A stretch of DNA of 64,000 bases from an uncultured Rivularia sp. (GTDB taxonomy: Bacteria > Cyanobacteriota > Cyanobacteriia > Cyanobacteriales > Nostocaceae), in contig OY762007.1 of assembly GCA_963665115.1 (NCBI GenBank), positions 4,160,001 through 4,224,000 of the forward strand. Direction: 5' to 3'. The translations under genes and the position numbers were made by a program. The notes under the pieces were generated by a model, which made no database searches, was not told where the DNA came from, and worked only from the letters and a program-made list of their open reading frames with translations. Below, in pieces: positions 3,293-36,341 of the stretch. Within the stretch, counting starts at the first letter, position 1; every line of letters starts with the position of its first letter.

Positions 3293-3525
3293 ATGTCACC
3301 CGTAGATAAGAAGAACACCGTCGAAGAAAGAAAGCAGCTAGTTAACGAAGTTTTAGACGCTTATCCTGAGAAAGCTAAAAAAAGACGTGCTAAGCACCTC
3401 AACGTCCACGAAGAAGGTAAGAGTGATTGTGGCGTAAAGTCTAATGTCAAGTCTCTTCCTGGTGTAATGACCGCTCGTGGTTGTGCATATGCAGGTTCCA
3501 AGGGTGTGGTTTGGGGTCCGATTAA
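3293..3525 (+). CDS. nifD: NifD fragment 1 (codons 1-78)
   Basis: MSPVDKK...[19 protein letters not shown], then diverges at repeat CGATTAA. Confidence 0.95.
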
Positions 3526-5213
3526 AAATATGTTTTATCTTTAAAATAAAATACCCTAAACTGTTTGTAGAGAACAATTTTAAGCAAATTAAATGTTCTT
3601 TACAAGCAGTTATTTTTTAGGGCATATTTAGGATGAAAAAGGTGCATCAAGAAGATTTAGATGATTTATTTGAATATTTTGAAGTTCCGGCAAGCACCGA
3701 TGGAAGCTACATGGGTACACAAGCTCAGGTGAAAGCAACGCAAGAATATATGGATAAAATAATTGAGGAGAAGCTTACAAATATAAATGCAAGACTCAAG
3801 GCGAGTCAAAGCAAGGTAAGTATTAAAAAAGTTGGAAACACTCTACAGTTAAGAGCTACTCTTCCGTTAAAACCTGGCGATACTAATAAATCGGGGAGAA
3901 CTAGAAAGCAATACTTTATCTCTTTAAGTATTCCAGCGAATTTGAACGGATTAAAAACAGCTGAAGAAGAAGCTAATGAATTAGGCACGCTGATTGCAAG
4001 AAAATGCTTTGAATGGAATGACAAATATCTAGGTATAAATACAAATAAACAGGAGTATAAAACTTTTAAGCAAGTATTAGAAACTTTAGAAAATGAATAT
4101 TTTAGTACTAGAAAAAGAACTATTAAGAGCGAGCATAGTTTTTGGCATTTGTATAAACGATATAAACAATATTTTGAATCAAATTTACCAGTTACCAGTG
4201 AAAATATCATTACAATTATTAGAAATATTGGTTCCCCGACATCTCGCGACCAAGCAATCAGAGTCGCTAGGGTATTTTCTCAAATTCATCAAATAGAAGT
4301 CAATTTCAAAAATTTAAAATTGCCTGTAGTCCCTAATGATAGGTATATACCTTCAGATATTGAAATTACAGAAGCTTTTGGAAAATATAAGGTAAAAGGC
4401 AATAATACAAAAGTAAGGAAAGACTATCGAAACTCTTGGAAGCTACACAGGTTAGTATTTGGACTAATTGCTACCTATGGTTTAAGACCGCGTGAGGTAT
4501 TTAATCAACCCGATTTAGAATGGTTTTTAAGTGATGAAAATACCGATTGTACTTGGAAAGTTCATAAGTCAAATAAGACAGGTTACAGAGAAGTTTTGCC
4601 TTTTATACCAGAATGGGTAGAATTATTTGAATTAAAAAATCCAGAGGCTATTTATTTATTGAATCAAAAAATAGAACAGATAACAAGCTTTCATGAATTA
4701 TCACACTTAGTTCAAACTAATGCTCGATGGTTTAGACGCATTCTAGATCTACCGTTTGAACCTTACGATTTAAGGCACGCTTGTGCGATTAGAGCGCATA
4801 TTCAAGGTTTACCAATCAAAGCATCAGCAGATAATTTGGGGCATTCTGTAGAAATGCATACTAAAGTCTATCAGCGTTGGTTCTCTTTAGAAAATCGCAA
4901 GAAAGTTATGAAATCTGCAATCAACAAAAAATCAGATGAACAGTTAGAAGCTGAAAATATCAGGTTAATGGCAGAAAATCAACAACTGAAATACCAATTG
5001 GATAAATTACGGCAAATTTCATCAAATATTCGCTAAAAGTTCTTCAATTAGGGTAGATTTAGGATTCATCAAACCCAAGCATAATTAGCAATTTGATTTA
5101 CTGTTTTAATTTTTAGGGAGCTTGTTTAGGGTAAATTCAGGTTACTCGACTGCGGAGGTTTGCGAAACTACTGTTATATAGATTTTTCAGCAGTCGAAGA
5201 ATATCACGATTAA
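3519..5213. mobile_element. nifD excision element 1 (1,688 bp; direct repeat CGATTAA at 3519-3525 and 5207-5213)
   Basis: Excision restores GGT CCG ATT AAG GAC ATG = GPIKDM in frame; recombinase is the only gene inside. Confidence 0.92.
3633..5036 (+). CDS. XisA/XisC-like tyrosine recombinase of nifD element 1
   Basis: YGLRPRE, YDLRHACAIR, LGHSVEMHTKVYQRWF motifs. Confidence 0.93.
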   Translation: MKKVHQEDLDDLFEYFEVPASTDGSYMGTQAQVKATQEYMDKIIEEKLTNINARLKASQSKVSIKKVGNTLQLRATLPLKPGDTNKSGRTRKQYFISLSIPANLNGLKTAEEEANELGTLIARKCFEWNDKYLGINTNKQEYKTFKQVLETLENEYFSTRKRTIKSEHSFWHLYKRYKQYFESNLPVTSENIITIIRNIGSPTSRDQAIRVARVFSQIHQIEVNFKNLKLPVVPNDRYIPSDIEITEAFGKYKVKGNNTKVRKDYRNSWKLHRLVFGLIATYGLRPREVFNQPDLEWFLSDENTDCTWKVHKSNKTGYREVLPFIPEWVELFELKNPEAIYLLNQKIEQITSFHELSHLVQTNARWFRRILDLPFEPYDLRHACAIRAHIQGLPIKASADNLGHSVEMHTKVYQRWFSLENRKKVMKSAINKKSDEQLEAENIRLMAENQQLKYQLDKLRQISSNIR

Positions 5214-6343
5214 GGACATGATCCACATCAGCCACGGTCCTATCGGTTGTGGTTTCTACTCTTGGTCTGGTCGTCGTAACTACTACATTGGAACCACAGG
5301 TGTTGACTCCTTTGGTACAATGAACTTTACTTCTGACTTCCAAGAAAGAGACATCGTTTTTGGTGGAGATAAGAAGCTCGCCAAAATGATTAACGAAATT
5401 GAAGAACTCTTCCCCCTCAATAGAGGCGTATCAGTTCAATCTGAGTGTCCCATCGGTTTGATTGGTGATGACATCGAAGCGGTTGCTAAGAAGGCATCCA
5501 AAGACCTTGGTAAGCCAGTTATCCCCGCTCGTTGTGAAGGTTTCCGTGGTGTGTCTCAGTCTTTAGGACACCACATCGCTAACGATGCTATTCGTGACTG
5601 GGTATTCCCTGCTGCTGATAAAGCTCACAAGGAAAACACCCTTGATTACGAACAAGGTCCTTACGATGTATCAATCATCGGTGACTACAACATCGGTGGT
5701 GACGCTTGGTCTAGCCGTATCCTCTTAGAAGAAATCGGCTTGCGCGTAGTCGCTCAGTGGTCTGGTGATGGTACTCTCAACGAGATGATGCTCACACCGA
5801 AGGTGAAGATGAACTTGATTCACTGCTACCGTTCGATGAACTACATTTCTCGTCATATGGAAGAAGCTTATGGTATTCCCTGGATGGAATACAACTTCTT
5901 CGGACCTACCAAGATTGCTGAATCTTTGAGAGCGATCGCCGCTAAGTTCGATGAGAAAATCCAAGAGAATGCTGAGAAGGTTATTGCTAAGTACCAGCCT
6001 ACAGCTGATGCAATCCTTGAAAAATACGGCGCTCGTCTAAAAGGCAAGACTGTTGCTTTGATGGTTGGTGGTTTACGTCCTCGTCACGTAGTACCTGCAT
6101 TCACAGACTTGGGAATGGAACTTGTAAGTACTGGTTATGAATTCGGTCATAACGATGACTACAAGCGTACTACCAACTACATTGAAAACGGAACCATCGT
6201 TTACGATGACGTAACTGGTTACGAATTCGAGCAGTTTGTAAAAGGACTTAAGCCCGACATCGTTGGTGCTGGTATTAAAGAGAAGTATGTCTTCCAGAAA
6301 ATGGGTCTTCCCTTCCGTCAAATGCACTCTTGGGATTACTCCG
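5207..6343 (+). CDS. nifD: NifD fragment 2
   Basis: [13 protein letters not shown]...SECPIG...LIHCYRS...[10 protein letters not shown]. Confidence 0.96.
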
Positions 6344-6947: not shown

Positions 6948-7742
6948 TTGACAAGACAAATTATAATGTTTAATATGATTAATTTACATAACTTAATAAC
7001 ACCCAAATCGATGTCTCTGATTATTGGAACCAGGATTCATAGTGGCGGTGGTACCCATACACCTAACTTTTCTCGATTAAAAAAATGGTGCGATCAAGTA
7101 TTAGAGTACGCCGATTATGTGGTGATAGCGACCGACGAACACCTGTTCAACGACATTGCCAATAATGTTTTGGGTTTCGGGAACCGAGTACATTCCCTTT
7201 TGGTTAACCCTTGGAAAGGATTCGCTCATCCTTTAAATGCAATCGTCTATGAAGCAACTTCTTTGGGTGGCAGCAAGCTTTTACTGCAAAGTCCAGAAGT
7301 TTACGTTAATTCGGCAGACATAAAAATACTAGATTTGCATCTAACCGCAGATACATTAGTAGCCGGAGCAAAGATGATTTTAAGTCATGGAGGAGATGCT
7401 GGAGTTAAACCTATAGATGGAATGACTTCACCTTGGAATACTTTGGCTTTGTGGAATTTATCAAAATTGAATATAACGGGATTTTTAGGAGTTTCCAGCG
7501 GACTTCTTAAAGATATACCTGGAGGAATGGAAGAAGTGACAACTATTTCGCTACTGCAACAGCTTTATCCAAATGAAGCTCATGCCAAATTAGTGACTTT
7601 ATCACAGCTAAAGTGGATTAACGATTGGAAGGATTTAAAACGCAAAAAGTACCACGAACAGAAAATGTCCTCAAAATTATCCCGAGCAGAAATACAATTA
7701 AAATACTCCAATATTCAACGGGGAATCGTTACTGTTTTGTAA
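6948..7742 (+). CDS. Hypothetical protein, possibly GT-A-like fold (start may be 7011)
   Basis: 264-aa ORF ending 3 bp before the next gene; pattern YVVIATD...PLNA...LLLQSPEV, no DxD. Confidence 0.55.
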   Translation: MTRQIIMFNMINLHNLITPKSMSLIIGTRIHSGGGTHTPNFSRLKKWCDQVLEYADYVVIATDEHLFNDIANNVLGFGNRVHSLLVNPWKGFAHPLNAIVYEATSLGGSKLLLQSPEVYVNSADIKILDLHLTADTLVAGAKMILSHGGDAGVKPIDGMTSPWNTLALWNLSKLNITGFLGVSSGLLKDIPGGMEEVTTISLLQQLYPNEAHAKLVTLSQLKWINDWKDLKRKKYHEQKMSSKLSRAEIQLKYSNIQRGIVTVL

Positions 7743-7745
7743 ATC

Positions 7746-9077
7746 ATGAATCAAGAACGTTTTGTGAATTGGTCGGGGGAGTACCAATGCATACCTAATT
7801 ACGTACATCACCCTGCAACAGATGAAGAAGTTAAGGATATTGTTTGTCAAGCTATCAAACGGGGAAGCAAAATTCGAGTATTTGGTAGCGCCCATTCTCC
7901 TAGCGATATGGCGATGAGTGATGAGGAATTAGTTTGTCTTGATGGTTTAAATACGATTAAAAATATTGACTATGAAAATCAAACCGTTGTGGTTGAAGCG
8001 GGAGTTACGATTCATGATTTGAGTCAAAGTTTGGCCAAATATGGATTAGCATTACCCAATTTAGGCTCTATTTCGGCTCAAACAATTTCCGGTGCAATGG
8101 CAACTGCAACTCATGGAACGGGTTTGAATTATGGTACAATGCCGACAATTATTGAAGAAATAACTTTGGTAGATGGGAAAGGAGAAATTGTCAAGATTTC
8201 CCAATATGAAAATTCTCAATTATTCAAAGCGGTTCAATGTCATTTAGGAAGTTTGGGATTAATTACAGAATATAAATTAAAAGTCACGGAAAGTTTTGAT
8301 TTAGAAGTAAAAGAGCAACCGCAAACTTTAGAAGCCGTATTTGAGAAGTTACCGGAGTCTTTGAAATCCGACCACTATCGTTTTTGGTATTTACCTCATG
8401 CAGATATGGCTTGGGAGTGGAATGCAACTCGTAAATCACCGGAAAATATTACAGATACAGAAAACAATATTGTACGCCGTTTGGGGAACTGGTATCAACA
8501 AAAGCTTATTGGCTATTATGCTTTTGAATTTTTATTATATTTAGCTGCTTATAATCAAAATTTGATTCCTGCTATCAATCGTTGGTATGCTAAACAAATG
8601 TTTAGTCAACCGAAGCATTCACGGGGTGATAGTTTAAGTCAATTTAATTTTGATTGTCTATTTAAACAGCGGGTAAATGAATGGGCTATTCCCATAGAAT
8701 ATACCGTTCAAGCTATAGAAGAAATTCGCAATTTGATTCAAAATAAAAACTATAAAGCTCATCTTCCCATTGAAGTACGTTTCGTTAAAGGGGATGATAT
8801 ATGGTTAAGTCCTTGTCAAGGAAGAGATAGCTGCTACATCGGCATCATCGGTTATATGCCATACGGAAAATATATTGATTGTCAAGATTATTTTGATGAT
8901 TATGAAAAAATAATGCTTAGTTTTGATGGTCGTCCCCACTGGGCTAAAAGATTTGGCCCAGATGCAGAAAAATTAGCACAAATATATCCCCATTGGAAGG
9001 ATTTTCAAAAAGTACGCCATCAACTCGATCCAGAAAATCGCTTTGGTAATTCCTATAGCGATCGGGTGTTGGGGTAG
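7746..9077 (+). CDS. FAD-linked aldonolactone oxidase (L-gulonolactone oxidase/ALO family)
   Basis: GSAHSPSD FAD-attachment His motif, ATHGTG, PIEVRFVKGDDIWLSPC, GRPHWAK. Confidence 0.9.
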   Translation: MNQERFVNWSGEYQCIPNYVHHPATDEEVKDIVCQAIKRGSKIRVFGSAHSPSDMAMSDEELVCLDGLNTIKNIDYENQTVVVEAGVTIHDLSQSLAKYGLALPNLGSISAQTISGAMATATHGTGLNYGTMPTIIEEITLVDGKGEIVKISQYENSQLFKAVQCHLGSLGLITEYKLKVTESFDLEVKEQPQTLEAVFEKLPESLKSDHYRFWYLPHADMAWEWNATRKSPENITDTENNIVRRLGNWYQQKLIGYYAFEFLLYLAAYNQNLIPAINRWYAKQMFSQPKHSRGDSLSQFNFDCLFKQRVNEWAIPIEYTVQAIEEIRNLIQNKNYKAHLPIEVRFVKGDDIWLSPCQGRDSCYIGIIGYMPYGKYIDCQDYFDDYEKIMLSFDGRPHWAKRFGPDAEKLAQIYPHWKDFQKVRHQLDPENRFGNSYSDRVLG

Positions 9078-9187
9078 AGGGGGTAGAGGGGGTAGAGGGG
9101 GTAGAGGGGGAGAATAAAAATAACTTTGAGATTTACTTAAAATCCAAAATCCAAAATCCAAAATCTAAAATCTAAAATCTAAAATCA
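9070..9187 (+). repeat. Tandem short repeats (GGGGTAGAG)n and (AAATC[C/T]A)n
   Basis: Seen directly between the two oxidoreductase genes. Confidence 0.85.
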
Positions 9188-9188
9188 A

Positions 9189-10436
9189 ATGACAGATATT
9201 TTAGTTGTCGGAACGGGGGAATATGTTACGGGTTTTGTTCGGGGAGCGGCTGCTGATTCTGATAAAAGCGCTGGTGTAATCGGATTGGTGCTTTTTGATT
9301 TGAGAAGTCGTGGTAAGGTAAATCAAATTGCTTTGTGCGGTCGTGATGGCAAGACTTTTCCGGGTATTCGCGGTCATTTTACTGAGAAAATTGCCAAGCA
9401 ATATGAAGGGATAGATATTAACGTAAATACTTTTCCCGGTGACGATCAATATAATCCTCAAGCTTATCAAACTGCGATCGAGAAAATGAAACCTGGGGAT
9501 GGGGTGATTGTCGTCACACCCGATGATACTCATTTTGAAATGGCGATGACAGCTATTCGTCATGGATTGCACGTTTTGGTTGTAAAGCCTTTGGTGAAAA
9601 CTTTAGAAGAGCATCAGAAATTAATAGAAGTTGGGAAACAGCATAACGTACTGGTGGCAATCGAAATGCATAAAAGATTTGACCCCATGTACTCCGACGC
9701 TCGCGATCGCGTTCGTAGTTTTGGAGATTTTAGCTATATGAATAGCTATATGAGCCAACCTCGGAGTCAGCTGCACACTTTTGGTAAATGGGCTGGAAAA
9801 TCTTCTGATATCAACTACTATCTGAATTCCCATCATATCGATCTATTGGATTGGATGGTCAGCGATTTTGCTAGACCAATTAAAGTAACTGGTTTGGGTG
9901 CTACCGGAGTTGCTAAAAACGAGTTTGACATAAATACCGAAGATACTATTACCACTACAATTCAATGGGAAAATATTCAAAGTGGGAATTTAGGAATTTC
10001 CGTTCATACTGCTTCGTGGATTGCTCCGAAATCTGACGTTCATTCCCAACAACGTTTCTTTTATATGGGACATCAAGGTGAATTACAAATTGACCAAGCT
10101 CATAGGGGTTATTCATCCGCAACAGTTTCCGGAGGATATGCTAGTATCAATCCTTTATTTATGAAATACGAACCTTCCAACGGTAAATTTGCCGGTCAAA
10201 GAGCTTATGGTTATCAAAGCATTGAAAAATTTATTGATGCTGTAGCTGGTATTAAGGAAGGAGCAAAACCAGAAGATTTTGATAACGATATAGCAACCGC
10301 TGGGAAAACATTACAAACAACAGCGATTTTAGAAGCAAGTCGTATTAGCTTGGATAATGATAATTCGTCAGTTGAAATTGAATATAATTCTTCTGAATCG
10401 CTGATTCCAGAAAAATTAAAAAAGGTTAAAGGTTAG
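9189..10436 (+). CDS. Gfo/Idh/MocA oxidoreductase, D-galacturonate reductase (fungal GaaA)-like
   Basis: VGTGEYVTGFV, LFDLRSRGKV, HKRFDPMYSDAR, SYMSQPRSQLHTFGKWAGKSSDINYYLNSHH, TEDTIT, NPLFMKY. Confidence 0.8.
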   Translation: MTDILVVGTGEYVTGFVRGAAADSDKSAGVIGLVLFDLRSRGKVNQIALCGRDGKTFPGIRGHFTEKIAKQYEGIDINVNTFPGDDQYNPQAYQTAIEKMKPGDGVIVVTPDDTHFEMAMTAIRHGLHVLVVKPLVKTLEEHQKLIEVGKQHNVLVAIEMHKRFDPMYSDARDRVRSFGDFSYMNSYMSQPRSQLHTFGKWAGKSSDINYYLNSHHIDLLDWMVSDFARPIKVTGLGATGVAKNEFDINTEDTITTTIQWENIQSGNLGISVHTASWIAPKSDVHSQQRFFYMGHQGELQIDQAHRGYSSATVSGGYASINPLFMKYEPSNGKFAGQRAYGYQSIEKFIDAVAGIKEGAKPEDFDNDIATAGKTLQTTAILEASRISLDNDNSSVEIEYNSSESLIPEKLKKVKG

Positions 10437-10672
10437 AGGTCAAAGGTTAAAGGTTAAAGGTTAAAGGTTAAAGGTTAGAGGTCAAAGTTTTTTAAATCGT
10501 ACTATTTAGTTTTGAATCTCTTTTTCCGTTTGTATCAAAATTATTTTACCTCCTCTTCCTTCTCTTTCCTCTGCGTCCTCTGCGGTTTATAATCTACTTT
10601 ATTTTCATACAAACAAATTAATGTATCTTCCGTCTTGTATAGTAAAAAACCGTATCTTATATAATAAAAACC

Positions 10673-12374
10673 ATGCAAAATAACAATCATATTAGTGAAA
10701 AATATAATAAATATTTAGAATACGAAAATCAAAGATTTAAAGAATTAGCCGAGCAAAATGTAAATAGCTGGGCTGATGTTTGGCAACAGTCAGTAGATAA
10801 ATATCCCGAAAAACCAATTGTTCGTGAAGTGGGTTCGTCAAAACCTTGGACTTATCAAGAACTTGACCGTGCAGCCAATAAAATTGCCACTTGGGCTATT
10901 TCTTTAAATCAAAATAATAAAAATAAAAATAAAAAATATATCGGAGTTCATCAAAGTAACAGTGCTGTTTTATTAGCAACTGTATTGGGATTAGCTAAAG
11001 CGGGAATTACCGCAGTTTTATTTAATGTTAGAGAATCCGAGCAGAAATTATCAACTTTAGCGTCTGATTGTGGAGTTGAAATAAATATAGGTAAACCAAT
11101 TCCATCAGTAAAGAGCTTCGATCCGAATTTAATTCTGTCAGCAGAATGGGAAGGAAGAATTTCCAAAGAGCATCGCGATCGCATTACTATAGAAGATCCA
11201 GTAGTAATTATCTTCACCAGCGGCACCAGCGGACGTAGTAAACCAGCACTTTTTAATCATCGTCGCATGATTGGAGCGGGAATTGCTTGGTCTTTAAGAA
11301 CTGAAATGACACAGGAAAGTAACTGTTATATAACTTTGCCTTTATATCACGGTAACGGTTTAGCAGTAGCTTTTGCTAGTTGTGTAGAAGCGGGAGCTTG
11401 TGCTGTAGTTAGAGAGAAATTTTCGGTACGAGCTTTTCTAGATGATGTGCGTAATTATAATTGCGATTCCGTTGTTTATATAGGAGAACTTTGGCGATAT
11501 TTAGCTAATAGTCCCCAAAAACCGGATGACAAAGATAATCCTTTAAAAGTTATTTTTGGCAATGGTTTGTCATCTGGATTGTGGGAAAATACTATTGAAA
11601 GATTTGGGATTGAAAGAGTTGTAGAACATTTTGGTGCTACAGAAATGCCAGCATCAGCTTTGACAAACTGGACGGGAAAACCTGGTTATTGTGGTTTTAT
11701 TCCTCCAAATCATCCCAATGCTGAAAATGTAGTGTTGGTTGACGAACAAGGAAAACCCGTTGCAATGGGAGAAATTGGACAAGCTTTGTTACGGGTTCCC
11801 GGCGATCGCTATCGAGGTTATCTCGACTCTTCACTTGATGAAAGTAAAATTTGGGAAAATTTATTGGAAACCGGGGGATTTATGGTGGTGTTCTGGAGAC
11901 TTGTTATCTAGAAATGCTGACGGTTTTTTTGCATTTATCGATCGTATGGGAGATACCTTTCGTTGGAAAGGAGAAAATGTTGCTTGTCAGGAAGTAGAAG
12001 AAGCAATTTTGTCAACTGGTTTAGTTAAAGAAGCGGTAGTATATGGAGTTGAGATTCCCAAAGCATCGGGTAAAGTTGGGATGGCATCTCTTTTAACCAT
12101 AGAATCTTTTTTTGAAGGTAATATTGATAATTTTTTAAATCAACTCAAAGAACTTTTACCTCCCTATGCGATTCCCCATATTATTAGATTAGTAGAACAG
12201 CATCATCAAACAACTTCTACAATGAAAATTCTTAAATCCCAATTACAGAAACAGGGATTTCAACAAATTGATAAATATCCGCATTTTATTCTTGTGGAAG
12301 GTAAGTATGTTGTTTTGACAAGAGATTATCTATCAAAGTTGGAGAATGGTAAGTTAAATTTCGGATTTCGCTAG
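10673..12374 (+). CDS. FATP/very-long-chain acyl-CoA synthetase-like adenylating enzyme (one +1 frameshift near 11870)
   Basis: IFTSGTSGRSK, TLPLYHGNG, FGATE, DRMGDTFRWKGENV; two ORFs join as LLEPGDLWWCSGD after removing one base. Confidence 0.85.
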
Positions 12375-12429
12375 AAAATAGAATCCCTTCCCCTCTCCTT
12401 AATAAGGAGAGGTTTTGAGTATAAATTAC

Positions 12430-13168: not shown

Positions 13169-15062
13169 ATGACATTCGCCAAGTCGAGCTTAAGTATATA
13201 CGATCTGCTTGAAGGTAGTGCTAAAAAAAATCCCGAGAATATAGCTATTGTAACTACTCAAAAGTCTCCTCTCACTTACAGCAGTTTGCTTAATGCTGTA
13301 AACGATGTACGAAGCAAGTTAAACCTAATGGGTATAGGTCGTAATGACCGAGTAGCTGTGGCTTTACCTAACTCCCCAGAGATGGCTGTGACTTTTTTAG
13401 CTATTGCTTCTTGTGCGACTTGTGCCCCTCTCAATCCTAATTATCGTGAATCGGAATACGATTTTTATCTTTCCGATTTAGATGCTAAAGCCTTAGTCTA
13501 TCAGTCGGGAATTGCTGAAGCTGCTGTGGAAGTAGCGAAACAAAAAGGTATTTCCTTAATAGAACTTTCTACAGAAAAAGAAGCCGTATCGGGTATTTTT
13601 CAATTGACGGTTGGGGAAGCGAAGAATCCAATTCAAAGCGGTATTGCTCAATCAGAAGATGTGGCCCTTGGTATTGCATACTTCCGGAACCACCTCTCGT
13701 CCCAAAATGGTTCCACTCACCCATAGTAATCTTTGCACCTCTGCTGAAAATATTTCCTCCACACTTAATTTAGTAGAGAATGACCGTTGTCTGAATGTAA
13801 TGCCTTTATTCCACATTCACGGACTTATAGGAGCTTTACTCTCATCGCTGAATGTTGGAGCAAGTATAGCTTGTACACCAGGATTTTACGCTCCTAATTT
13901 CTTTAAATGGGTCGAGGAATTACATCCTACTTGGTATTCAGCAGTTCCCACCATGCATCAAGCAATTTTGGCGCGGGTAGAGACGAATAGTGAAATTATT
14001 GCTAGTTCTCAAATCCGCTTAATTCGTTCTTCTTCTGCTCCTTTACCACCTCGAATAATGACAGAATTGGAACAAGTTTTTAATGTTCCGGTAATTGAAT
14101 CTTATGGGATGACAGAAGCCTCTCATCAAATGGCTAGTAATCCTCTTCCTCCCTTTATACGTAAACCTGGTTCGGTAGGGATTGCAGCAGGGCCAGAAGT
14201 TGCAATTATGGATGATACGGGTAAATTATTGTCATCTGGAGAAATTGGAGAAGTAGTAATTCGGGGAGTCAATGTTACTCAAGGTTACGAAAATAATCCC
14301 CAAGCAAACAAAACTGCTTTTACTAATGGTTGGTTTCGGACGGGTGATTTGGGTTATTTAGATAAGGATAATTATCTATTCCTCAAGGGTCGAATTAAAG
14401 AAATTATTAACCGTGGTGGGGAAAAGATTTCTCCTCGTGAAGTTGATGAAGTGCTTTTAGATCATCCAAACATTGACCAAGTTGTTACCTTTGCGGCTCC
14501 TCATACTCTTTTGGGTGAAGATGTTGCTGCTGCTGTGGTTTTAAAACAAGGTGCATCATTAACAGAACTAGAAATCAAGGAATTTGCAGCATTAAAACTA
14601 GCTGATTTTAAAATTCCTCGTGTAGTGTTATTCGTAGATGAAATACCGAAAGGTCCTACAGGTAAAAGACAGCGTATAGGTTTAGCCCAAAAATTAGGAT
14701 TAACAGCTTCCGATCCTACTGCAACTACAGAATATGCACCTCCGACAACAGCTATAGAAGAAAAATTAGTTCAAATTTGGTCTAAGGTATTAGGCGTTGA
14801 AAAGGTAGGAATTAACGATAACTTTTTCGGGTTAGGAGGAGATTCTATCTTAGCGGCTCAAATTATCAATAGAGTTCGCGAAGTTTTGCAAGTTGAGTTA
14901 TCTTTTCTAATCTTCTTTGAACAACCTACTGTTGCGAGTATGGCAATCAAAATCACTCAAAATCAGGCTGAAGAAGTAATGTCTGAAGAATTAGATGATG
15001 TATTAAACAACTTAGAATCTCTTTGCGAGTCAGAAGTTGAAAAACTGTTAGGACAGATGTAG
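13169..15062 (+). CDS. Oxalate-CoA ligase (AAE3/Pcs60)-like adenylation domain fused to a carrier protein (one +1 frameshift at CCC 13665-13667)
   Basis: LHTSGTTSRPK, VMPLFHIHGL, WYSAVPTMHQ, RSSSAPL, YGMTEASHQMASNPLP, PCP motif LGGDSIL. Confidence 0.82.
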
Positions 15063-15099
15063 TTAAATAATACCTATTACAATTAATTGCAACTAGATT

Positions 15100-15933
15100 A
15101 TGGATAATTCCCCAAATTACTTACGAGAAGAATTGAAAGCAAAAGACATCATTCCTTTCATTGGTGTTTATGATGCTTTCTCAGCTTCAATAGCAGCTAA
15201 ATATTACAAAGGTATTTTTATTAGTGGTTTTGGTTTTGCAGCTAGCCACTATGGCTTACCAGATATTGGATTTATTTCTTGGTCTGATATTGTCGCTTTT
15301 GTCCAAAGGGTGAAAAATTTACTTCCCAATCACCACATTATTGTTGATATTGATGATGGCTATGTAGATACAGAAGTTGCTTGTCATGTAGTTTCTTTAT
15401 TGGAATCTATTGGTGCGGCTGGAATAATTATTGAAGACCAAAAACGACCTCGTAGATGCGGTCATGTTGATGGCAAAATATTGATGGAATTAGATGAATT
15501 TATAGATAAATTAAAACAAGTTTTAGCTGCTCGTAAAGATATTTTTGTAGTGGCTCGGACAGATGCAAGCGATACCTCAGAAATTATTAAAAGAGCTAAA
15601 GCTTATGCAGAAGTAGGAGCAGATGCCATATTGGCTGATGGAATTCATGATTTAGATGTAATTAGAACTCTTAAAAATCAAGTTGATAAGCCTTTAGTAT
15701 TTAATCAAATAGCGGGTGGAAAATCTCCTGAATGCAGTTTAACTGATTTGAAAAAAGCAGGTGTATCTCTTGTTAATTACAGTACACCATGCCTATTTGC
15801 AGTTCAAACAGCGATTGAAGACGAGATGAAATTGCTTAGAGAAAATGACGGGTGGTTGCAAAAACAACGTGTGGGTGTACGAGAGTGTAACGCGCATTTA
15901 CATGAGAATCTTGCAAATAAGAAAAATTATTAA
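15100..15933 (+). CDS. Isocitrate lyase/PEP mutase family enzyme (oxaloacetate acetylhydrolase/methylisocitrate lyase-like)
   Basis: VDIDDGY, IEDQKRPRRCGH, ARTDA. Confidence 0.85.
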   Translation: MDNSPNYLREELKAKDIIPFIGVYDAFSASIAAKYYKGIFISGFGFAASHYGLPDIGFISWSDIVAFVQRVKNLLPNHHIIVDIDDGYVDTEVACHVVSLLESIGAAGIIIEDQKRPRRCGHVDGKILMELDEFIDKLKQVLAARKDIFVVARTDASDTSEIIKRAKAYAEVGADAILADGIHDLDVIRTLKNQVDKPLVFNQIAGGKSPECSLTDLKKAGVSLVNYSTPCLFAVQTAIEDEMKLLRENDGWLQKQRVGVRECNAHLHENLANKKNY

Positions 15934-15960
15934 AAACTAATTATATTTTTGTTAATAAAC

Positions 15961-18900
15961 ATGAAAGATATCACCCAACGTATTGCAAATCTCTCACCAG
16001 CAAAACGAGCGCTTCTAGAACAGCAACTTCATAAAAAAGCATTACAAACTAAACAAGAGAACAACATCTCTCCGAGAAAACAATATCAAGACACTCCCTT
16101 ATCGTTTTCTCAGCAAAGAATGTGGTTGCTAGACCAATTAGAACCTGGAAATCCAGCTTATAATCGTCCGGCAAATATTAGTTTGACTGGTACGATCAAT
16201 GTACAAGTATTGGAAAAAATTCTCAACGAAATAATACGTCGTCACGAAGTCTTACGTACTAGCTTTGAGGAAGTAAACGGACAACCTTTTCAGAAAATCA
16301 CTCCGAATATAACTTTAAAGCTACCAATAGTAGACCTCAGTAATTTAAATGATGAAAATAAAGAAATTGAAGTTCAAAAACTAGCGACTGAAGAAGCACA
16401 GCAGACCTTTGATTTAACTCAAGTTCCTTTAATAAAAGCTAAATTGGTACGACTCCACGAGCAGAAACATATACTCTTGCTGACAATGCATCATATTGTC
16501 TTTGATGGTTGGTCTATGGGAGTTCTACTCAAGGAAGTAGGAGAACTTTACCAAGCTTTCTCAACGGGTAAACCATCTCCTCTACCAGAATTACCCATCC
16601 AATATGCTGACTTTGCTGTTTGCCAGAGAGAATGGTTAACAGATAAAGTTCTAGACAAGCAACTAAATTATTGGAAACAGCAACTAGCAGGTGCAAATCC
16701 AGTACTGGAATTACCCACAGACAGTCTACGTCCACCAGTGCAGACTTATAATGGTGCTACTGCTACTCTCATCCTACCTCGAAGCTTGAACTATAGACTC
16801 CAACAGCTTTGTCGTCAGGAAGGGGTGACATTATTCATGACCTTATTGGCTGCATTTGGGACTCTACTCTACCGTTATACCGGGCAAGAAGATATTCTGA
16901 TTGGTTCGCCCGTTGCCGGTCGCAACCGGGGAGAGATTGAACAATTAATCGGATTATTTGTCAACACAGTTGTTTTGCGGACTAGTTTTACCAAACAAGA
17001 TAGTTTTCGTTCTTTGTTAGCTCAAGTTAGAGAAGTTACCTTGGGTGCTTATGACCATCAAGCTATGCCTTTTGAGAAACTGGTAGAAGAATTCCAGCTT
17101 GAGCGAGATACCAGCCGCAACCCTTTATTTCAGGTGTGGTTTAATATGCTCAACTTGAAAGATATCCAACTCGAACTACCGGGGATAAATGTAGAATCTA
17201 TTTCTGCGGGGGAAGCAGCTTCCAAGTTTGATTTAACTTTATATGTGGCAGAGCAAGAAGATGGATTGAAACTAAAATTAGTCTATAATTATGACTTGTT
17301 TGCGACCGAGCGGATGATGGAAATGCTCAATCAATACCACCATTTACTTTTGCAGATAGTTGAAAATCCAGAAGTTAATATTAACGAACTGTCTATAGTA
17401 ACTCAGTCAGCTAAATCATTCTTACCAAATCCTCAAAAGCAACTTTCTAGTAAATGGGAAGGAGATATTCCTAAGTTATTTTCTCAACAAGCTCAAAGGG
17501 TACCACAGCATCTAGCGGTTGTGGATGCCCAAGTTGCTTGGACTTACGACGAACTAGAGAAACGTGTTAACCAACTCGCAAACTATCTACTGGGAAATAA
17601 TATACAACAGCAGGATATTGTTGCTATTTACGCTCAGCGTAGGGTTAGGCTAGTTTGGGCAATTTTGGGAGTTCTCAAAGCTGGTGCTGCATTTGTAATT
17701 CTCGATTCAGCTTATCCCACTTTTCGTTTAATTGATTGTCTGCAACTCGTTAAACCCCGTGGCTGGTTACAAATTGATTCTGAGGAACTTCCCACTGACT
17801 TGCAAGAGTATGTGAATTCTTTATCTTTTGATTGTCAGCTTAATCTTCCCCAAGATTCAACATCGGCAATTTCTGAAAAATTAAAAGATTATCCAACTAA
17901 CACTCCAGAAATAATAATTGAGCCAGATAATTTAGCATATGTTGCGTTTACCTCTGGTTCTACGGGAAAACCAAAAGGGATAAAAGGAACTCACAGACCT
18001 CTATCCCACTTTTTACAATGGCATTATCAAACCTTTGGTTTAAATCAGTCTGACAAATTTAGTATGCTCTGCGGTCTGTCCCATGACCCATTGTTACGGG
18101 ATATCTTCACCCCATTGTCGTTAGGTGCGACTTTATATATCCCCAGACAGGAAGATATTTATTCACCACCAAAATTAACCAATTGGATGGTAGAACAGCA
18201 AATTAGTATTGCTCATTTAACACCAGCAATGGGGCAAATGTTGAGTGCAGATACTAAAACTACTACAAAATACCTTCGTTATCTATTTTTTGGGGGTGAT
18301 GTATTAACAAAAATTGACGTAGAAGGAATTACTAAATTTGCTCCAAACGCTACCCAAGTTAATTTCTACGGTTCTACTGAAACTCCCCAAGCAATGGGCT
18401 ATTTTATTATTCCCCGCGATTGCTTACTATCGAATACCGTACCTTTGGGTAAAGGCATTGACGATGTACAATTATTACTTCTTAATTCTAAGCAGCAGTT
18501 AGCTGGGATTGGAGAGTTAGCAGAAATCTATGTTCGTACCCCTTACTTAACTAAAGGCTATATCAACAGTGAAGAATTGACGGATCAAAGGTTTATTGTT
18601 AATCCCTTCGCAAAAAATCCTGAAGATAAACTTTATAAAACTGGGGATTTAGGACGCTATTTAAGTAATGGTAATATCGAATTTTTTGGTCGTATCGATA
18701 ACCAAGTAAAGATTCGCGGCTTCCGCATCGAATTGGGAGAAATAGAATCTTTACTTAATACCCATCCCCAAATCCAACAAGCTGTAGTTATTGTCCGAGA
18801 AGATATCAGTAACGACAAACGCTTAGTTGCCTATCTAGTTCAAGATGAATCACTTACTACCGAAGAAGTACGTGAATTTGTCAAGCATAAGTTACCAGAA

Positions 18901-20226
18901 TATATGGTGCCTAGTACCTTTGTTAGCTTAGAGAACATACCTTTAACAGCTAACGGCAAAGTAGATAGAAAAGCATTACCCGCACCAGATTCATTAAGTA
19001 TTAATTTAGAGAATAATTTTGTTAAACCCAGTAATTATACAGAAGAAATCTTAGCAACTATTTGGGCAGATGTTCTGGGTGTAGAGCAAGTAGGAATTCA
19101 TGACAACTTCTTTGAATTGGGCGGTCATTCGTTGTTAGCTATGCGCTTAGTAGCACAAATAGAACAAGTAACTCAGAAAAAACTACCATTAGCTGCTCTA
19201 TTTAAATTTACAACAATCTCGGAACTAGCCAATCTGATCCAAAACGAAGTTGCAGATACCAATCCAAATTTATCAGTGGACTTACCGTCAATAGACACAG
19301 ATATTTTTCGTGCATTATTAACTATAATCGCTGGTAGGGAAGGAGCGCGACCAAGACCTGATTCTCTAATGGTTGCATTTCGTGAAACAGGAAAAAAGCC
19401 TCCCTTATTTTTCTGCGCTAATGCTACATGGGAAATACGTCCCCTTACCCAGTATCTAGATGAAGAGCAACCAATTTATTTACTAGAATCTGGTTATGCT
19501 GTTTTTGATCGGAAAGGTCAATTAAACAAGGCTCCTAGAGATGATATTAAGGCGATCGCTACTCGTCACGTCCGCGATATATTATTAATAAATCCAGAAG
19601 GACCGTATTTTTTGATCGGATATTCTTTTGGAAAACTTGTAACCTATGAAATAGCTAAGCAATTGCAAGCAAAGGGAAAGAAAATTGCATTGTTAGCAAT
19701 CTTAGATACTCCCGGTTCGGCAAAAACTTATCAGTATACAAAAAAAATATTGGTAGGGATAGCTGAAATGTCACAGGAGCTATTTAGTGGTTCATTACTA
19801 AGTTTTACTAAACGTTTTGGTTTATCGATATGGAAAGTAAAAGAAGATTTGGCAGAAATTGGTAGCAAAACTATTGTAAAACTTTTGCGTATAAATAATT
19901 TTTCTCATAAATCCGACCTTGACTCCAATCCTATTTCCGAGAAACAGCAAAACAATCCAGAAATTAAAGAATCCATATCTTATATGGAGCAAAATAAAGC
20001 GAAGTACATAATGGAAGGCTATCAAGGCAAAATTACGTTTTTTGTTACTTCCGTTGTTCGTCGTAACCATAACAAAATTCTACGTCGGCTATTTCCTTTA
20101 ATGGGTTGGAACAAACACGTTATAGAAAAAGTCAAAGTCCCCGGCGACCATAATAGCATGGTAAGAGAACCTGACGTGAAAGCCTTAGCAGAAAGTTTAA
20201 TGGATATACTCGCAAATCTGAAATGA
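15961..20226 (+). CDS. Monomodular NRPS C-A-PCP-TE
   Basis: C domain HHIVFDGWS; A domain FTSGSTGKPKG, YKTGD, KIRGFRIELGEIE; PCP LGGHSLL; TE GYSFG and GDH. Confidence 0.93.
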   Translation: MKDITQRIANLSPAKRALLEQQLHKKALQTKQENNISPRKQYQDTPLSFSQQRMWLLDQLEPGNPAYNRPANISLTGTINVQVLEKILNEIIRRHEVLRTSFEEVNGQPFQKITPNITLKLPIVDLSNLNDENKEIEVQKLATEEAQQTFDLTQVPLIKAKLVRLHEQKHILLLTMHHIVFDGWSMGVLLKEVGELYQAFSTGKPSPLPELPIQYADFAVCQREWLTDKVLDKQLNYWKQQLAGANPVLELPTDSLRPPVQTYNGATATLILPRSLNYRLQQLCRQEGVTLFMTLLAAFGTLLYRYTGQEDILIGSPVAGRNRGEIEQLIGLFVNTVVLRTSFTKQDSFRSLLAQVREVTLGAYDHQAMPFEKLVEEFQLERDTSRNPLFQVWFNMLNLKDIQLELPGINVESISAGEAASKFDLTLYVAEQEDGLKLKLVYNYDLFATERMMEMLNQYHHLLLQIVENPEVNINELSIVTQSAKSFLPNPQKQLSSKWEGDIPKLFSQQAQRVPQHLAVVDAQVAWTYDELEKRVNQLANYLLGNNIQQQDIVAIYAQRRVRLVWAILGVLKAGAAFVILDSAYPTFRLIDCLQLVKPRGWLQIDSEELPTDLQEYVNSLSFDCQLNLPQDSTSAISEKLKDYPTNTPEIIIEPDNLAYVAFTSGSTGKPKGIKGTHRPLSHFLQWHYQTFGLNQSDKFSMLCGLSHDPLLRDIFTPLSLGATLYIPRQEDIYSPPKLTNWMVEQQISIAHLTPAMGQMLSADTKTTTKYLRYLFFGGDVLTKIDVEGITKFAPNATQVNFYGSTETPQAMGYFIIPRDCLLSNTVPLGKGIDDVQLLLLNSKQQLAGIGELAEIYVRTPYLTKGYINSEELTDQRFIVNPFAKNPEDKLYKTGDLGRYLSNGNIEFFGRIDNQVKIRGFRIELGEIESLLNTHPQIQQAVVIVREDISNDKRLVAYLVQDESLTTEEVREFVKHKLPEYMVPSTFVSLENIPLTANGKVDRKALPAPDSLSINLENNFVKPSNYTEEILATIWADVLGVEQVGIHDNFFELGGHSLLAMRLVAQIEQVTQKKLPLAALFKFTTISELANLIQNEVADTNPNLSVDLPSIDTDIFRALLTIIAGREGARPRPDSLMVAFRETGKKPPLFFCANATWEIRPLTQYLDEEQPIYLLESGYAVFDRKGQLNKAPRDDIKAIATRHVRDILLINPEGPYFLIGYSFGKLVTYEIAKQLQAKGKKIALLAILDTPGSAKTYQYTKKILVGIAEMSQELFSGSLLSFTKRFGLSIWKVKEDLAEIGSKTIVKLLRINNFSHKSDLDSNPISEKQQNNPEIKESISYMEQNKAKYIMEGYQGKITFFVTSVVRRNHNKILRRLFPLMGWNKHVIEKVKVPGDHNSMVREPDVKALAESLMDILANLK

Positions 20227-21579: not shown

Positions 21580-22035
21580 TTATCTAATCTCAATCTGCTG
21601 ACTATCTACTTCTAAAATTACTTCATCATCATATTTCAAATCATCAATTTTAAAAGTAATAATCTCTAAAATATCCGCAGCTTGAAAATGCTCTGGTTTT
21701 GTATCTGGATGGGGATAATAAATCAATCCTTCTTTGACTTCACCGTTTGTGAGCAAAATTCTGCAATCAAAAAATGAAAAGTCTTCCGCTGGTTCGTTTT
21801 CCGCCCATTTGAGATTTTTAAAGGTGTATTTGGCTTGTTTAACAGAATATTGATGGGGAGAAATTGAAATATTCAAAGTTCCTGAAAAATACGGTTGTAA
21901 ATCAAGTCCTAACTCACGAAAGAAAGGCTTTTGCATTTCAATTGTTCCGTTGGGGAAACGTATATCTCCACCTTTACCCGATGCGACACCGTAACCTTTT
22001 TTGATAATTCCTTTGACTTGTAAATAATTGATCAT
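21580..22035 (-). CDS. Hypothetical protein, weak likeness to CTP-dependent riboflavin kinase fold
   Basis: GIIKKGYGVAS...GTLNISI pattern. Confidence 0.55.
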   Translation of the reverse strand: MINYLQVKGIIKKGYGVASGKGGDIRFPNGTIEMQKPFFRELGLDLQPYFSGTLNISISPHQYSVKQAKYTFKNLKWAENEPAEDFSFFDCRILLTNGEVKEGLIYYPHPDTKPEHFQAADILEIITFKIDDLKYDDEVILEVDSQQIEIR

Positions 22036-23246: not shown

Positions 23247-25337
23247 ATGAAAGACCTCACTCGTTATCGAAATATCGGCATCTTCGCTCACGTTGATGCA
23301 GGAAAAACAACCACAACTGAAAGAATTCTCAAGCTTACTGGTAAGATCCACAAAATCGGTGAGGTTCATGAAGGTGCGGCGACAACGGACTTTATGGATC
23401 AGGAGCAGGAGCGCGGTATTACGATTCAATCCGCTGCTACAAGCTGCTTCTGGAACGAACATCAATTGAATATCATCGATACCCCTGGGCACGTTGATTT
23501 CACGATTGAGGTATATCGTTCTCTCAAGGTTCTGGACGGCGGAATCGGCGTATTTTGTGGCTCTGGTGGTGTGGAACCCCAGTCGGAAACCAACTGGCGC
23601 TATGCTAACGACTCGGAAGTTGCGCGTGTTATTTACGTTAACAAGCTCGACCGCATAGGAGCAGATTACTACCGCGTTATCAAACAGGTGGAAGATGTGC
23701 TTGCTGCTAAGCCGTTGGTTATGGTACTACCTATCGGTACCGAAAGTGAATTTTCTGGCGTTGTTGACTTGCTGACTCGTAAAGCATGGGTGTGGGATGA
23801 TTCCGGCGACCCTATGAACTACGAGATTAAGGAAGTTCCGGAAAACATGAAGGATGATGTCGAAACTTGGCGCGAAAAGCTAGTTGAAATCGCTGTGGAA
23901 CAAGACGATGCGTTGATGGAAAAATACCTTGAAGGTGAAGAGGTATCCGTAGATGAGTTGAAGCGCTGTATCCGCAAGGGCACCATTGACTTAGCATTCT
24001 TCCCTACTTACTGTGGTTCTTCCTTTAAAAACAAGGGCGTACAATTAGTACTCAATGCAGTTGTTGACTATTTGCCTAACCCCAAAGAAGTCAAGCCTCA
24101 GCCCGAAGTTGACCTTGAAGGTAACGAAACTGGCGAATTTGCCGAAGTTGACTCAGAAGCACCATTGCGGGCGCTAGCATTCAAAATCATGGACGATCGC
24201 TTCGGTGCTTTGACCTTTACTCGCATATATTCAGGTACCCTTTCAAAAGGTGATACCATCCTCAATACCTATACTGGTAAAACCGAGCGTGTCAGTCGTC
24301 TTGTAGAAATGCACGCCGATTCTCGCGAAGAAATCGATACAGCCCAAGCTGGAGATATTGTCGCGATTGTGGGTATGAAGAACGTCCAAACCGGACATAC
24401 CTTGTGCGACCCCAAGGACCCCGCAACCCTAGAACCAATGGTGTTTCCAGACCCCGTAATCTCTATTGCGATAGCACCTGCGAAGAAAGGAAGCTCCGAG
24501 AAACTCGGTATGGCTTTGAGCAAGATGGTTCAAGAAGATCCTTCCTTCCAGGTTGAAACCGACAAAGACAGCGGTGAAATGATTATCAAAGGGATGGGAG
24601 AACTGCACCTGGATATTAAAGTTGATATCCTCAAGCGGACTCACGGCGTTGAAGTGGAAGTTGGTAAGCCCCAAGTAGCATACCGCGAATCTATTACTAA
24701 GCGCATCGAAGACACCTACATCCATAAAAAGCAATCCGGTGGTTCCGGTCAATTCGGTAAGATTGAATATATTATCGAACCTGGCGAACCCGGTACTGGC
24801 TTCGAGTTCCAGTCCAAAGTAACTGGTGGTAACGTACCCAGAGAATTTTGGCCCGCAGTTCAAAAGGGTTTTGAAAGCAGTATTGACAAAGGTGTTTTAG
24901 CTGGATTCCCCTTGGTAGACGTGAAAATTACCTTAACTGACGGTGCTTATCACCCAGTTGACTCCAGCGCGATCGCGTTTGAGATTGCAGCGAAATCCGG
25001 TTATCGTCAAACTTTACCAAAAGCCGGTCCTCAGTTGCTTGAGCCAGTTATGAACGTAGACGTATTTACACCTGACGACCACGTTGGTGATGTAATTGGC
25101 GACTTAAACCGTCGTCGTGGCATGATTAAATCCCAAGATCCAGGTGCTACAGGGGTTCGCATCAAGTCAGAAGTTCCTCTAAGCGAAATGTTTGGTTACA
25201 TCGGCGATTTACGTACCATGACTTCCGGTCGCGGTCAGTTCTCAATGGAATTTGACCACTACGCACCATGTCCTAGAAATGTCGCTGATGAAGTTATTAA
25301 GGAAGTGAAAGAACGCGATGCTGCTGCTAAGAAGTAA
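23247..25337 (+). CDS. fusA: Elongation factor G paralog (stand-alone, outside the str operon)
   Basis: [41 protein letters not shown]; 696 aa. Confidence 0.95.
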
Positions 25338-34686: not shown

Positions 34687-35965
34687 CTAATCTCTATAAA
34701 CCTTCTCCATCCTCAATTTCTCAACCTCCAACTTCAATCTTTGATTTTCTTCTTTAATCACCTCTACTTCATTCCTTTTACTCAAAGCCGTATCAATAGC
34801 TAACTTCCGCATATCCAAGGAAAACCAACGCTGATAAGTTTGAGTATGCACCTGTACGCTGTGACCCCAAATTATCTGCTGCTGCTTTGATGGGAATTCC
34901 TAATATATGCGCTCGAATTGCCCAAGCATGACGTAAGTCATAGGGTTTAAAGTCTAATCCAATTTTACGAAACCACCAGCTAACTCGTTGCGTTAATGCG
35001 GTTATCTGTGCATGATTTTTTTGATCTTTTTTATCGATTGCATCTACCAGCATTTCTAAATATTTGGGATTTCTTAAATTAAAGTCTGCAATCCATTGTT
35101 TATATAAAGGTAGTGCTTCTCTTTCCCCCGTTTTGCAATCTCTATCTACCTTCCAGGTCATATCTGCATTATCTTCGCTTAACCACCACTCAACGTTGGG
35201 GTTGATAAACAATTCTCGCGGACGCAAACCGTACACCGCAAGCATCCCATATATCCAGCGCCATAGTTGCCAGCTATCTTTAACATTTTGATTAACTTGT
35301 TTGCCTCTAATGTTAAGGTAATCTGCAAATTTGATAAATCCTGTAGATATTTCTGCATCGGTGGGTATCTTACGAGAATTATGTTCCGGCATTTTGGAAT
35401 ATTTTGATAAATCAATCTCGATTTTGAACGTTGTGCAAAATGCTGATATTGCTCTGGCTGCATTGTATCTCGCCCATTCTTTATCGATTTTTTCAATTGC
35501 ACCGATCAGATTTTCGGCGATCGCCAAATCTTGAGAATTAGTATATCGTTTGGTTCGAGTAAAATAATAGTAAAAAGTATGTTCGCTTTTAGTAGTGCGT
35601 TGATGGGTTTGAAAATATTCTAATTCAAATTTATCCAATAATTCACCTATAGTTTTAAAGTCTTTATTTCTTGCTTCTCTTCCTAGATATTTATCATTCC
35701 ATACAAAAGTTTTACGAGCAATTAATTTACCTAACTCGTATGCTTCCTCCTCAGCAGTTTTTAAACCATCTAAATTAGCCGGAAGATTTAAACTAATATT
35801 GTATTGCTTTTTACTCGTTCCTTTTTTATCTATATCTCCTGGTTTACTTGGTAAAGTAGCACGCAATTGTAAACTGCCGTTAGATTCTCTAATAGTAACT
35901 TTTGTCTTGGCTAATTTGAAACGCTGGTTTACTTTTTCTAATTCTAATAAGAGTTTTTCTTTCAT
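34687..35965 (-). CDS. xisA: nifD element recombinase XisA (+1 frameshift at CCCC 34865-34868)
   Basis: RESNGSLQLRATLP, YDLRHAWAIRAH; removing one base restores LGHSVQVHTQTYQRWF and a stop at 34687. Confidence 0.92.
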
Positions 35966-36184: not shown

Positions 36185-36341
36185 GGATTACTCCGGTCCT
36201 TATCACGGTTATGATGGCTTCGCTATCTTCGCTCGTGACATGGATCTAGCAATCAACAATCCTTCCTGGAAATTGATTGGAACTCCTTGGAAGAAAGAAG
36301 AAGCTGCTGCTACTAATCAAGCTGCTAAAGCTTCTGTTTAG
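36185..36341 (+). CDS. nifD: NifD fragment 3 (C-terminus)
   Basis: [51 protein letters not shown]. Confidence 0.95.

Follow-up and report, generated by a model that had tools for sequence, protein, structure and literature searches.

Among described systems, the one closest to the locus treated here is the D-galacturonate pathway of euglenids and stramenopiles (PMC4396506); the protist route is also described in PMC11066809. Here we analyse a 64,000-nucleotide stretch of DNA from an uncultured Rivularia sp. (contig OY762007.1, positions 4,160,001 to 4,224,000; hereafter the window) in which four genes, termed the cassette, encode a GT-A fold protein (ORF1), an aldonolactone oxidase, a reductase and an adenylating ligase. 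The cassette shares with the pathway of PMC4396506 its predicted intermediates (UDP-galacturonate, D-galacturonate, L-galactonate and L-galactono-1,4-lactone), a GaaA-type reductase and an aldonolactone oxidoreductase at the last step; one related locus, L049, also has an epimerase and GLDH. It differs in being bacterial and clustered, in using, as a rule, an O2-dependent oxidase in place of GLDH, and in having an ANL-family ligase, no lactonase and a candidate gene for uronate release. We put at about 0.6 the probability that the cassette makes L-ascorbate de novo by a Euglena-type uronate route.

Prokaryotic vitamin C synthesis was called unclear in papers of 2015, 2022 and 2024 (PMC4396506, PMC9602106, PMC11099136). 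The first of these knew of a single GULO, that of Rivularia sp. PCC 7116, and saw little sign that prokaryotes make the vitamin. Further bacterial oxidases, from Moorena, Calothrix parasitica and others, were added in PMC9602106, where L-galactono- or D-arabinonolactone is suggested as the substrate of the Moorena and Calothrix enzymes. These lone genes belong to the same family as the cassette oxidase, and that of C. parasitica lies in a cassette locus, L006. In the passages of both papers that deal with them, the oxidase is treated alone, without proposed upstream genes, and the words operon and synteny are absent from PMC9602106. The lone oxidase is already in print; what is new is the four-gene cassette, predicted to be a bacterial, mostly oxidase-ended version of a euglenid-like pathway without lactonase. 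Neither the cassette nor ORF1 nor the ligase was found described in the open-access literature, a coverage that takes in few subscription journals.

The gene set and its distribution

The four genes lie on the same strand at the positions given by an earlier note, made from the letters of the window, and are present in one copy each in the window genome. They are as follows.

6948..7742, + strand: ORF1, an unnamed GT-A (GT2-like) family protein with its likely start at ATG 7011, judged by homologues; predicted UDP-galacturonate hydrolase
7746..9077, + strand: aldonolactone oxidase, GULO/ALO-like; predicted covalent-FAD L-galactono-1,4-lactone oxidase
9189..10436, + strand: reductase of Gfo/Idh/MocA fold, GaaA type; predicted D-galacturonate reductase
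10673..12374, + strand: FATP/PRK08279-like adenylating enzyme of a cassette-specific subfamily, split by an extra base near 11868; predicted aldonate lactonising ligase

The oxidase begins 3 nt past the end of ORF1. Short tandem repeats lie between cassette genes in the intergenic stretches 9078-9188 and 10437-10500.

A search with ORF1 returned 97 proteins, 52 genome loci and 80 metagenome loci. In the genome loci, many of which stop at contig edges, ORF1 was accompanied by the ligase in 41/52, the reductase in 43/52 and the oxidase in 32/52; all four genes were found in 23, at least three in 44, and ORF1 alone in 3. Where the oxidase or the ligase was missing from the flank, it was present elsewhere in the genome (5/5 for each). 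The metagenome loci held all four genes in 14/80 and ORF1 alone in 43/80, the latter mostly divergent (29-42%) or on short contigs. Loci with the complete set span cyanobacteria, gammaproteobacteria, Campylobacterota and Myxococcota. The hosts of the genome loci include Rivularia, Calothrix, Moorena, Symploca, Dapis, Trichodesmium, Nostoc, Beggiatoaceae, Psychromonadaceae, Dyella, Sulfurovum, Arcobacteraceae, Sulfurospirillum, Hydrogenimonas and one Myxococcota metagenome-assembled genome (MAG). Among 251 Campylobacterales genomes, the carriers of each of the four genes were the same 10, and the other 241 yielded none of them. Co-occurrence of the four genes is far beyond chance, and the neighbourhood search proposed in the earlier note showed it to be wide.

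Gene order is variable, with the ligase mostly ahead of ORF1 outside the genus of the window. Distribution is patchy: the cassette occurs in 10/24 other genomes of the genus and in 0/16 others of the order, and a sample of the phylum gave an oxidase match in 5/401 genomes (the window's own, one broken copy at 57% and three distant types at 32-36%). No acyltransferase, dehydratase, aldolase or lactonase was conserved beside the cassette genes.

Single loci deserve mention. A TauE/SafE-family transporter gene, a possible exporter, lies in or beside the cassette in 4/52 loci (L016, L017, L018 and L023). L012 (8001-11168) is a decayed copy in which an inserted gene is flanked by ORF1 and what is left of the ligase; the cassette of L021 is interrupted by inserted ORFs, and the oxidase of L065 is broken.

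Oxidase and reductase

The oxidase carries the domains PF04030 and PF01565, and all the motifs cited for it in the earlier note were found in the translation. It resembles the GULO, ALO and GalDH enzymes described in PMC11099136 in the vanillyl-alcohol oxidase (VAO) fold, the His for covalent flavin adenine dinucleotide (FAD), the oxidase Gly, the Glu-Arg pair, the HWxK lysine and the Cys and Gln of the gating loop. The residues in the window enzyme are His50, Gly107, Cys304, Gln308, Glu343, Arg345 and Lys401, with Gly366 at the GalDH-413 site. These include equivalents of Glu386, Arg388, Lys456, Cys340 and Gln344, which mark aldonolactone oxidoreductases, and H50 (covalent FAD) and G107 (oxygen gate), which mark the oxidase branch. 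The mark of animal L-gulonolactone oxidase is lacking at G366, where the sponge GULO control has Asn. When 18 cassette oxidases were aligned, Glu386, Arg388, Lys456, Gln344 and the Gly at site 413 were kept in all, and the FAD His and the Cys in 12 each. By the residue roles given in PMC11099136, these shared residues, joined in the window enzyme by His50 and Gly107, characterise covalent-FAD oxidases that prefer L-galactono- to L-gulonolactone. The enzyme is predicted to be an O2-using oxidase preferring L-galactono- (or D-arabinono-) lactone; since the stereoselectivity site holds Gly and not the Asn of animal GULO, L-galactonolactone is the predicted substrate.

The best 60 or so matches of the oxidase were bacterial or unnamed, followed at 40-44% by Galdieria, Naegleria and early-diverging fungi. 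The close tie to animal GULO that had been read from the motifs does not hold, for these are the nearest named eukaryotes and the 413 site is Gly. A FastTree phylogeny of 61 chosen sequences, rooted on one GLDH, places the cassette oxidases in three positions: the window enzyme belongs to a separate, diverse and mostly bacterial clade (0.89), others form a clade of Campylobacterota and Thiomargarita (1.0), and L049 holds the third place. At the deep nodes, which bear on the direction of transfer and the origin of GULO, Shimodaira-Hasegawa support was 0.07-0.64.

Gly at the 413 site together with nearest oxidases outside the animals points to the D-galacturonate/L-galactonolactone route. The earlier note had named the animal and Euglena route together; of the two, the Euglena-type route is favoured. 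An animal-type sequence with the same enzymes, from UDP-glucuronate through L-gulonate and L-gulonolactone to ascorbate, is very unlikely. Many of the oxidases are named L-gulonolactone oxidase in databases and an epimerase gene was found in the flank at just 1/52 genome loci, as this route would have it; against it stand the invariant Gly and epimerase genes elsewhere in the genome in 5/5 carriers tested.

The oxidoreductase of L049 (3293-4909) is a GLDH (TIGR01676, 396 bits; E 2e-137 to GalDH structures), and a UDP-glucuronate-epimerase-like gene lies ahead of its ligase-ORF1-reductase set, beside the GLDH. GLDH has been called essentially absent from prokaryotes (PMC4396506), and no further GLDH-type cassette was found among 60 relatives of the L049 genome (G657). 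Three aldonolactone oxidoreductase lineages, one a true GLDH, thus share the same cassette core. Their recruitment to one core argues against a sugar-acid salvage, catabolic or detoxifying unit without link to ascorbate, as does the lack of a conserved dehydratase or aldolase. Such a unit is the least probable of the alternatives, even though fungal GaaA is catabolic (PMC9192788) and some genomes have ORF1 without the other genes.

The reductase belongs to the Gfo/Idh/MocA family. Outside the cassette it is closest to proteins of stramenopiles (Nitzschia 59%, Tribonema 55%) and of Planctomycetes, and many close relatives bear the JGI automatic label D-galacturonate reductase. Fold and length fit the GaaA type (EC 1.1.1.365); a 420-aa GaaA homologue of Euglena has galacturonate reductase activity (PMC9192788). 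Sugar dehydrogenases are common among Gfo/Idh/MocA members, which leaves room for a route without inversion. ORF1 would then free an aldose (L-galactose or D-arabinose) from a nucleotide diphosphate sugar, the Gfo/Idh/MocA enzyme would oxidise it to the aldonolactone and the ligase would re-close hydrolysed aldonate, giving ascorbate or D-erythroascorbate. D-arabinonolactone also fits Gly413, and Galdieria, whose oxidase is the nearest from a named eukaryote, uses an L-galactose route (PMC4396506). This arrangement is rather improbable: the recurrent partner of ORF1 is a UDP-uronate-epimerase-like domain, the reductase relatives are labelled D-galacturonate reductase, and solved dehydrogenases match the reductase weakly (best E 4e-10).

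ORF1 and the ligase

ORF1 has no Pfam or NCBIfam match (Pfam at E<=0.1). Its AF2 model (pLDDT 94) has a GT-A fold, as had been suspected from the letters, with GT2 enzymes nearest: PcManGT (Z 17.8, rmsd 3.0, 211 aligned) and BcsA (Z 17.6). It differs from these transferases in sequence (7-16% identity), in an invariant SxE for DxD, in its many invariant basic residues and in its lack of a Pfam family; the Atlas gives just one lead to PF00535 (GT2), at 13%. The near-invariant residues are R23, S109, E111, H141, W157, N158, E189, E190, R226, K233, K237 and R240. We assume that E189-E190 and the basic C-terminal helix may match the xED and QxxRW elements of GT2. The invariant basic site would suit a substrate with a diphosphate and a carboxylate.

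At 50% identity the ORF1 family falls into 1024 clusters; those in the Atlas include Campylobacterota, cyanobacterial and oomycete-rich ones. Of 136 newly listed representatives, 16 were long (>=450 aa), and five of these were fusions of ORF1 with an epimerase, in both orders, the epimerase domains being 42-44% identical to that of L049. In L130 and L133, too, a single ORF encodes such a fusion. One fusion was named UDP-glucuronate 4-epimerase by JGI and one came from EukProt; the others are probably eukaryotic too. The window genome has two such UDP-glucuronate 4-epimerase-like genes (57-58% identical). The best match of the epimerases was PDB 5U4Q, titled dTDP-glucose 4,6-dehydratase; 6ZL6 and MoeE5 we take to be UDP-glucuronate epimerases. 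These recurrent fusions and the neighbour in L049 tie ORF1 to a UDP-uronate epimerase, in line with the release of uronate from a nucleotide sugar that the earlier note had considered. In addition, protein P0273 joins ligase and ORF1 in one chain.

In a tree of 71 ORF1 domains, the cassette forms one clade (0.98) and the forms from small genomes without the other genes a separate one (1.0). The lone genes L053, L054 and L055 fall in their own clade, and their neighbourhoods are like those of the Candidate Phyla Radiation; the ORF1 family has other uses there. Named eukaryotic carriers of ORF1 are Phytophthora, Pinguiococcus and Chrysoparadoxa, and one EukProt source, 'Clim', yielded ORF1 as well as an oxidase of the Gly type. 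GLDH is present in oomycetes and in algae with secondary plastids (PMC4396506).

The ligase gene appears in the window as two overlapping ORFs, 10673-11911 and 11739-12374, with one extra base near 11868. This base is absent from the contigs of three of four sequencing runs (X2, X3 and X4; X1 matches the window) and from the intact relatives L006 and L010, and the same run pattern is seen at 13665 in the next gene. All four runs come from one study. A sequencing slip in a short one-base run is the likeliest cause, because the X2 and X3 contigs show no substitutions there; a sample-specific mutation is the alternative.

The protein is of the PRK08279 type (the halves of the split gene score 242 and 171 against a cut-off of 625), and among PDB entries human FATP2 matches it best (E 3e-66). 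With FATP/Slc27 and the bacterial FadD6/PRK08279 ligases it shares the adenylation motifs and the FATP signature. It is set apart from them by length (~565 aa), by identity of 29-37%, by altered invariant residues and by its own clade, 35 cassette ligases being monophyletic (0.96) against five generic ones taken from a plasmid database; none of the loci seen has beta-oxidation genes next to it. Twenty near-invariant positions, including the bulky or polar W210, W278, H323, M329 and W337, differ in all five generic long-chain ligases, and at 278, 323 and 329 human FATP2 departs from the cassette enzymes too. By ANL numbering, several of the altered residues presumably line the acyl pocket, and the alterations suggest a pocket fit for a short polar acid. 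No generic FATP control was found among 60 genomes of the order of G656, and an Atlas search with the ligase returned generic AMP-binding clusters only.

The earlier note had seen no lactonase, and none is conserved in the cassette. An SGL lactonase was found in 4/10 carriers, the window genome among them, and was undetected in 6/10, several carrier genomes being incomplete; PF10282 was under cut-off in 4/5 of the SGL-negative cassette genomes. Lactonisation has been described as a bottleneck, ring closure being unfavourable away from acid pH (PMC4299797). For this reason ATP-driven lactonisation would be the simplest role for the ligase. Alternatively, ORF1 might glycosylate and/or the ligase acylate ascorbate to give a stable or lipophilic antioxidant, with the lactone closing spontaneously or by host lactonases. 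The GT2 transferases at the top of the structural matches of ORF1, the FATP/acyl-CoA signature with FATP2 as best match and the SGL genes of four carriers speak for such a modified product. We consider it unlikely, as the cassette has no other source of free uronate, no acyltransferase co-occurs, the ligase is bulky where long-chain ligases have small residues and six carriers lack a detectable SGL lactonase.

The proposed pathway, the nifD element and significance

The activities and products of the pathway are predicted from the linkage, co-distribution, folds, families and active-site residues observed above. In the first step, a housekeeping or linked epimerase would convert UDP-glucuronate to UDP-D-galacturonate. 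ORF1, with its GT2-like fold and water as acceptor, would release D-galacturonate, which the GaaA-type reductase would reduce to L-galactonate. The FATP-like ligase would then adenylate the carboxylate of L-galactonate, perhaps by way of a CoA thioester, and attack by the 4-OH would close L-galactono-1,4-lactone in place of a lactonase. Finally, the flavo-oxidase would oxidise C2 to yield L-ascorbate and H2O2. The steps assigned to ORF1 and the ligase, the second and the fourth, have the weakest basis. As far as predicted genes go, the euglenid-type set is represented by a galacturonate reductase, an L-galactonolactone-oxidising enzyme and a UDP-glucuronate 4-epimerase; its SMP30-like aldonolactonase has no conserved counterpart in the cassette. 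The co-occurrence, the GT-A fold with its tie to the epimerase and the many carriers without detectable lactonase support the pathway that the earlier note had read from this locus. Whatever the route, the end product is likely ascorbate or a close enediol-lactone analogue.

Several points weigh against the Euglena-type pathway. The oxidase scores 373.3 bits against TIGR01678, still its best model, below the cut-off of 396.8, and is just over the cut-off of the generic bacterial TIGR01679; Gly413 is common to fungal ALO-type enzymes, leaving D-erythroascorbate as a possible product. The GLDH and epimerase variant is a single MAG contig (1/61 relatives). The GaaA-type name of the reductase comes from JGI automatic labels, and similar reductases exist in Planctomycetes and Verrucomicrobia. 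The best folds for ORF1 are transferases, not hydrolases, and other ORF1 fusions join unrelated domains. The small genomes of L053-L055 (0.8-1.0 Mb) carry ORF1 and no reductase or oxidase was found in them; in one MAG (G817) three genes were present and no oxidase was found. The ten Campylobacterales carriers are kin and not independent. As for the ligase, it is frameshifted in the window and in run X1, its pocket was assigned from ANL-family numbering and five outgroups, and two clear SGL lactonase genes are present in the window's genome, so the ligase step may be dispensable.

As stated in the earlier note, the cassette is situated in a nifD excision element, 0.6 kb into its 29.85 kb. Exact 11-bp direct repeats within nifD bound the element, a recombinase gene lies at one end, and joining nifD across the repeats restores a 435-aa open frame with the nifD C-terminus. 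Other features of the element are as follows.

6333..6343, + strand: left recombination repeat of the nifD element, GGATTACTCCG
12392..12412, + strand: terminator-like hairpin directly 3' of the ligase gene
34793..35965, - strand: integrase-like recombinase gene at the far end of the element, its translation similar to other integrase-like ORFs of the window
36185..36195, + strand: right recombination repeat of the nifD element, GGATTACTCCG

The recombinase, which had no Pfam match at E<=0.001, we take to be of the XisA type. Terminator-like sites in the region were not above chance (3 found, 4.1 expected), and a promoter scan was at chance level (30 found, 26.5 expected). A primary role tied to heterocysts or nitrogenase was considered and rejected: the cassette follows nifD in 8 loci of the genus and in no other carrier. 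Most carriers hold it elsewhere, and the element is a mere vehicle in this genus.

A second break in nifD, near codon 80 (window 3293-5209), is due to a small element that brings an integrase of its own (3633-5036). Integrase-like genes, six in all and related to one another (3633, 34793, 37048, 38926, 43963 and 58031), lie amid nif and hydrogenase gene fragments (window 3633-59347), which suggests several excision elements. The cargo of the cassette-bearing element includes a small nonribosomal peptide synthetase cluster (13169-20226) with a ligase-carrier protein, an enzyme of the phosphoenolpyruvate mutase/isocitrate lyase family and a condensation-adenylation-peptidyl carrier protein-thioesterase module; among the loci fetched it adjoins the cassette in L046 only, and its ligase-carrier gene is split at 13665, probably through error. 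A Fe/Mn superoxide dismutase gene (30754-31485) is a second antioxidant-type cargo gene. A full EF-G gene (23247-25337) and a 151-aa gene without Pfam match (21580-22035) are also carried; relatives of these turn up close to the cassette in L005, L007, L012 and others. Further cargo genes are a dienelactone hydrolase gene (33098-33880), for which no linkage to the cassette was seen elsewhere, and a partial transpeptidase-domain gene (32133-32681), presumably class D beta-lactamase-like.

The vitamin C pathway is usually credited to eukaryotes only, and the cassette is likely a complete bacterial one in at least four phyla. A wider reading, for which the odds are slightly short of even, takes it as the first complete prokaryotic vitamin C operon, old and mobile across phyla, with two new enzyme activities. 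One would be a GT2-fold UDP-galacturonate hydrolase, which would also be the uronate-releasing step, so far without an assigned gene, in stramenopiles and other protists, fused there to the epimerase; the other would be a FATP-derived, ATP-dependent synthetase of aldonate lactones. In this wider reading, the deep bacterial oxidase clade could be sister to, or the source of, eukaryotic GULO. The cassette makes the question of prokaryotic vitamin C a four-gene experiment, with Calothrix parasitica NIES-267 and Dapis sp. BLCC M229 as cultured carriers, and ORF1 may be the gene that frees uronate in the protist pathway. ATP-driven lactonisation, if true, would lift the bottleneck in engineered ascorbate fermentation (PMC4299797). 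The carriers are mat cyanobacteria and sulfur-cycling bacteria, in which an antioxidant or an iron reductant would be plausible.

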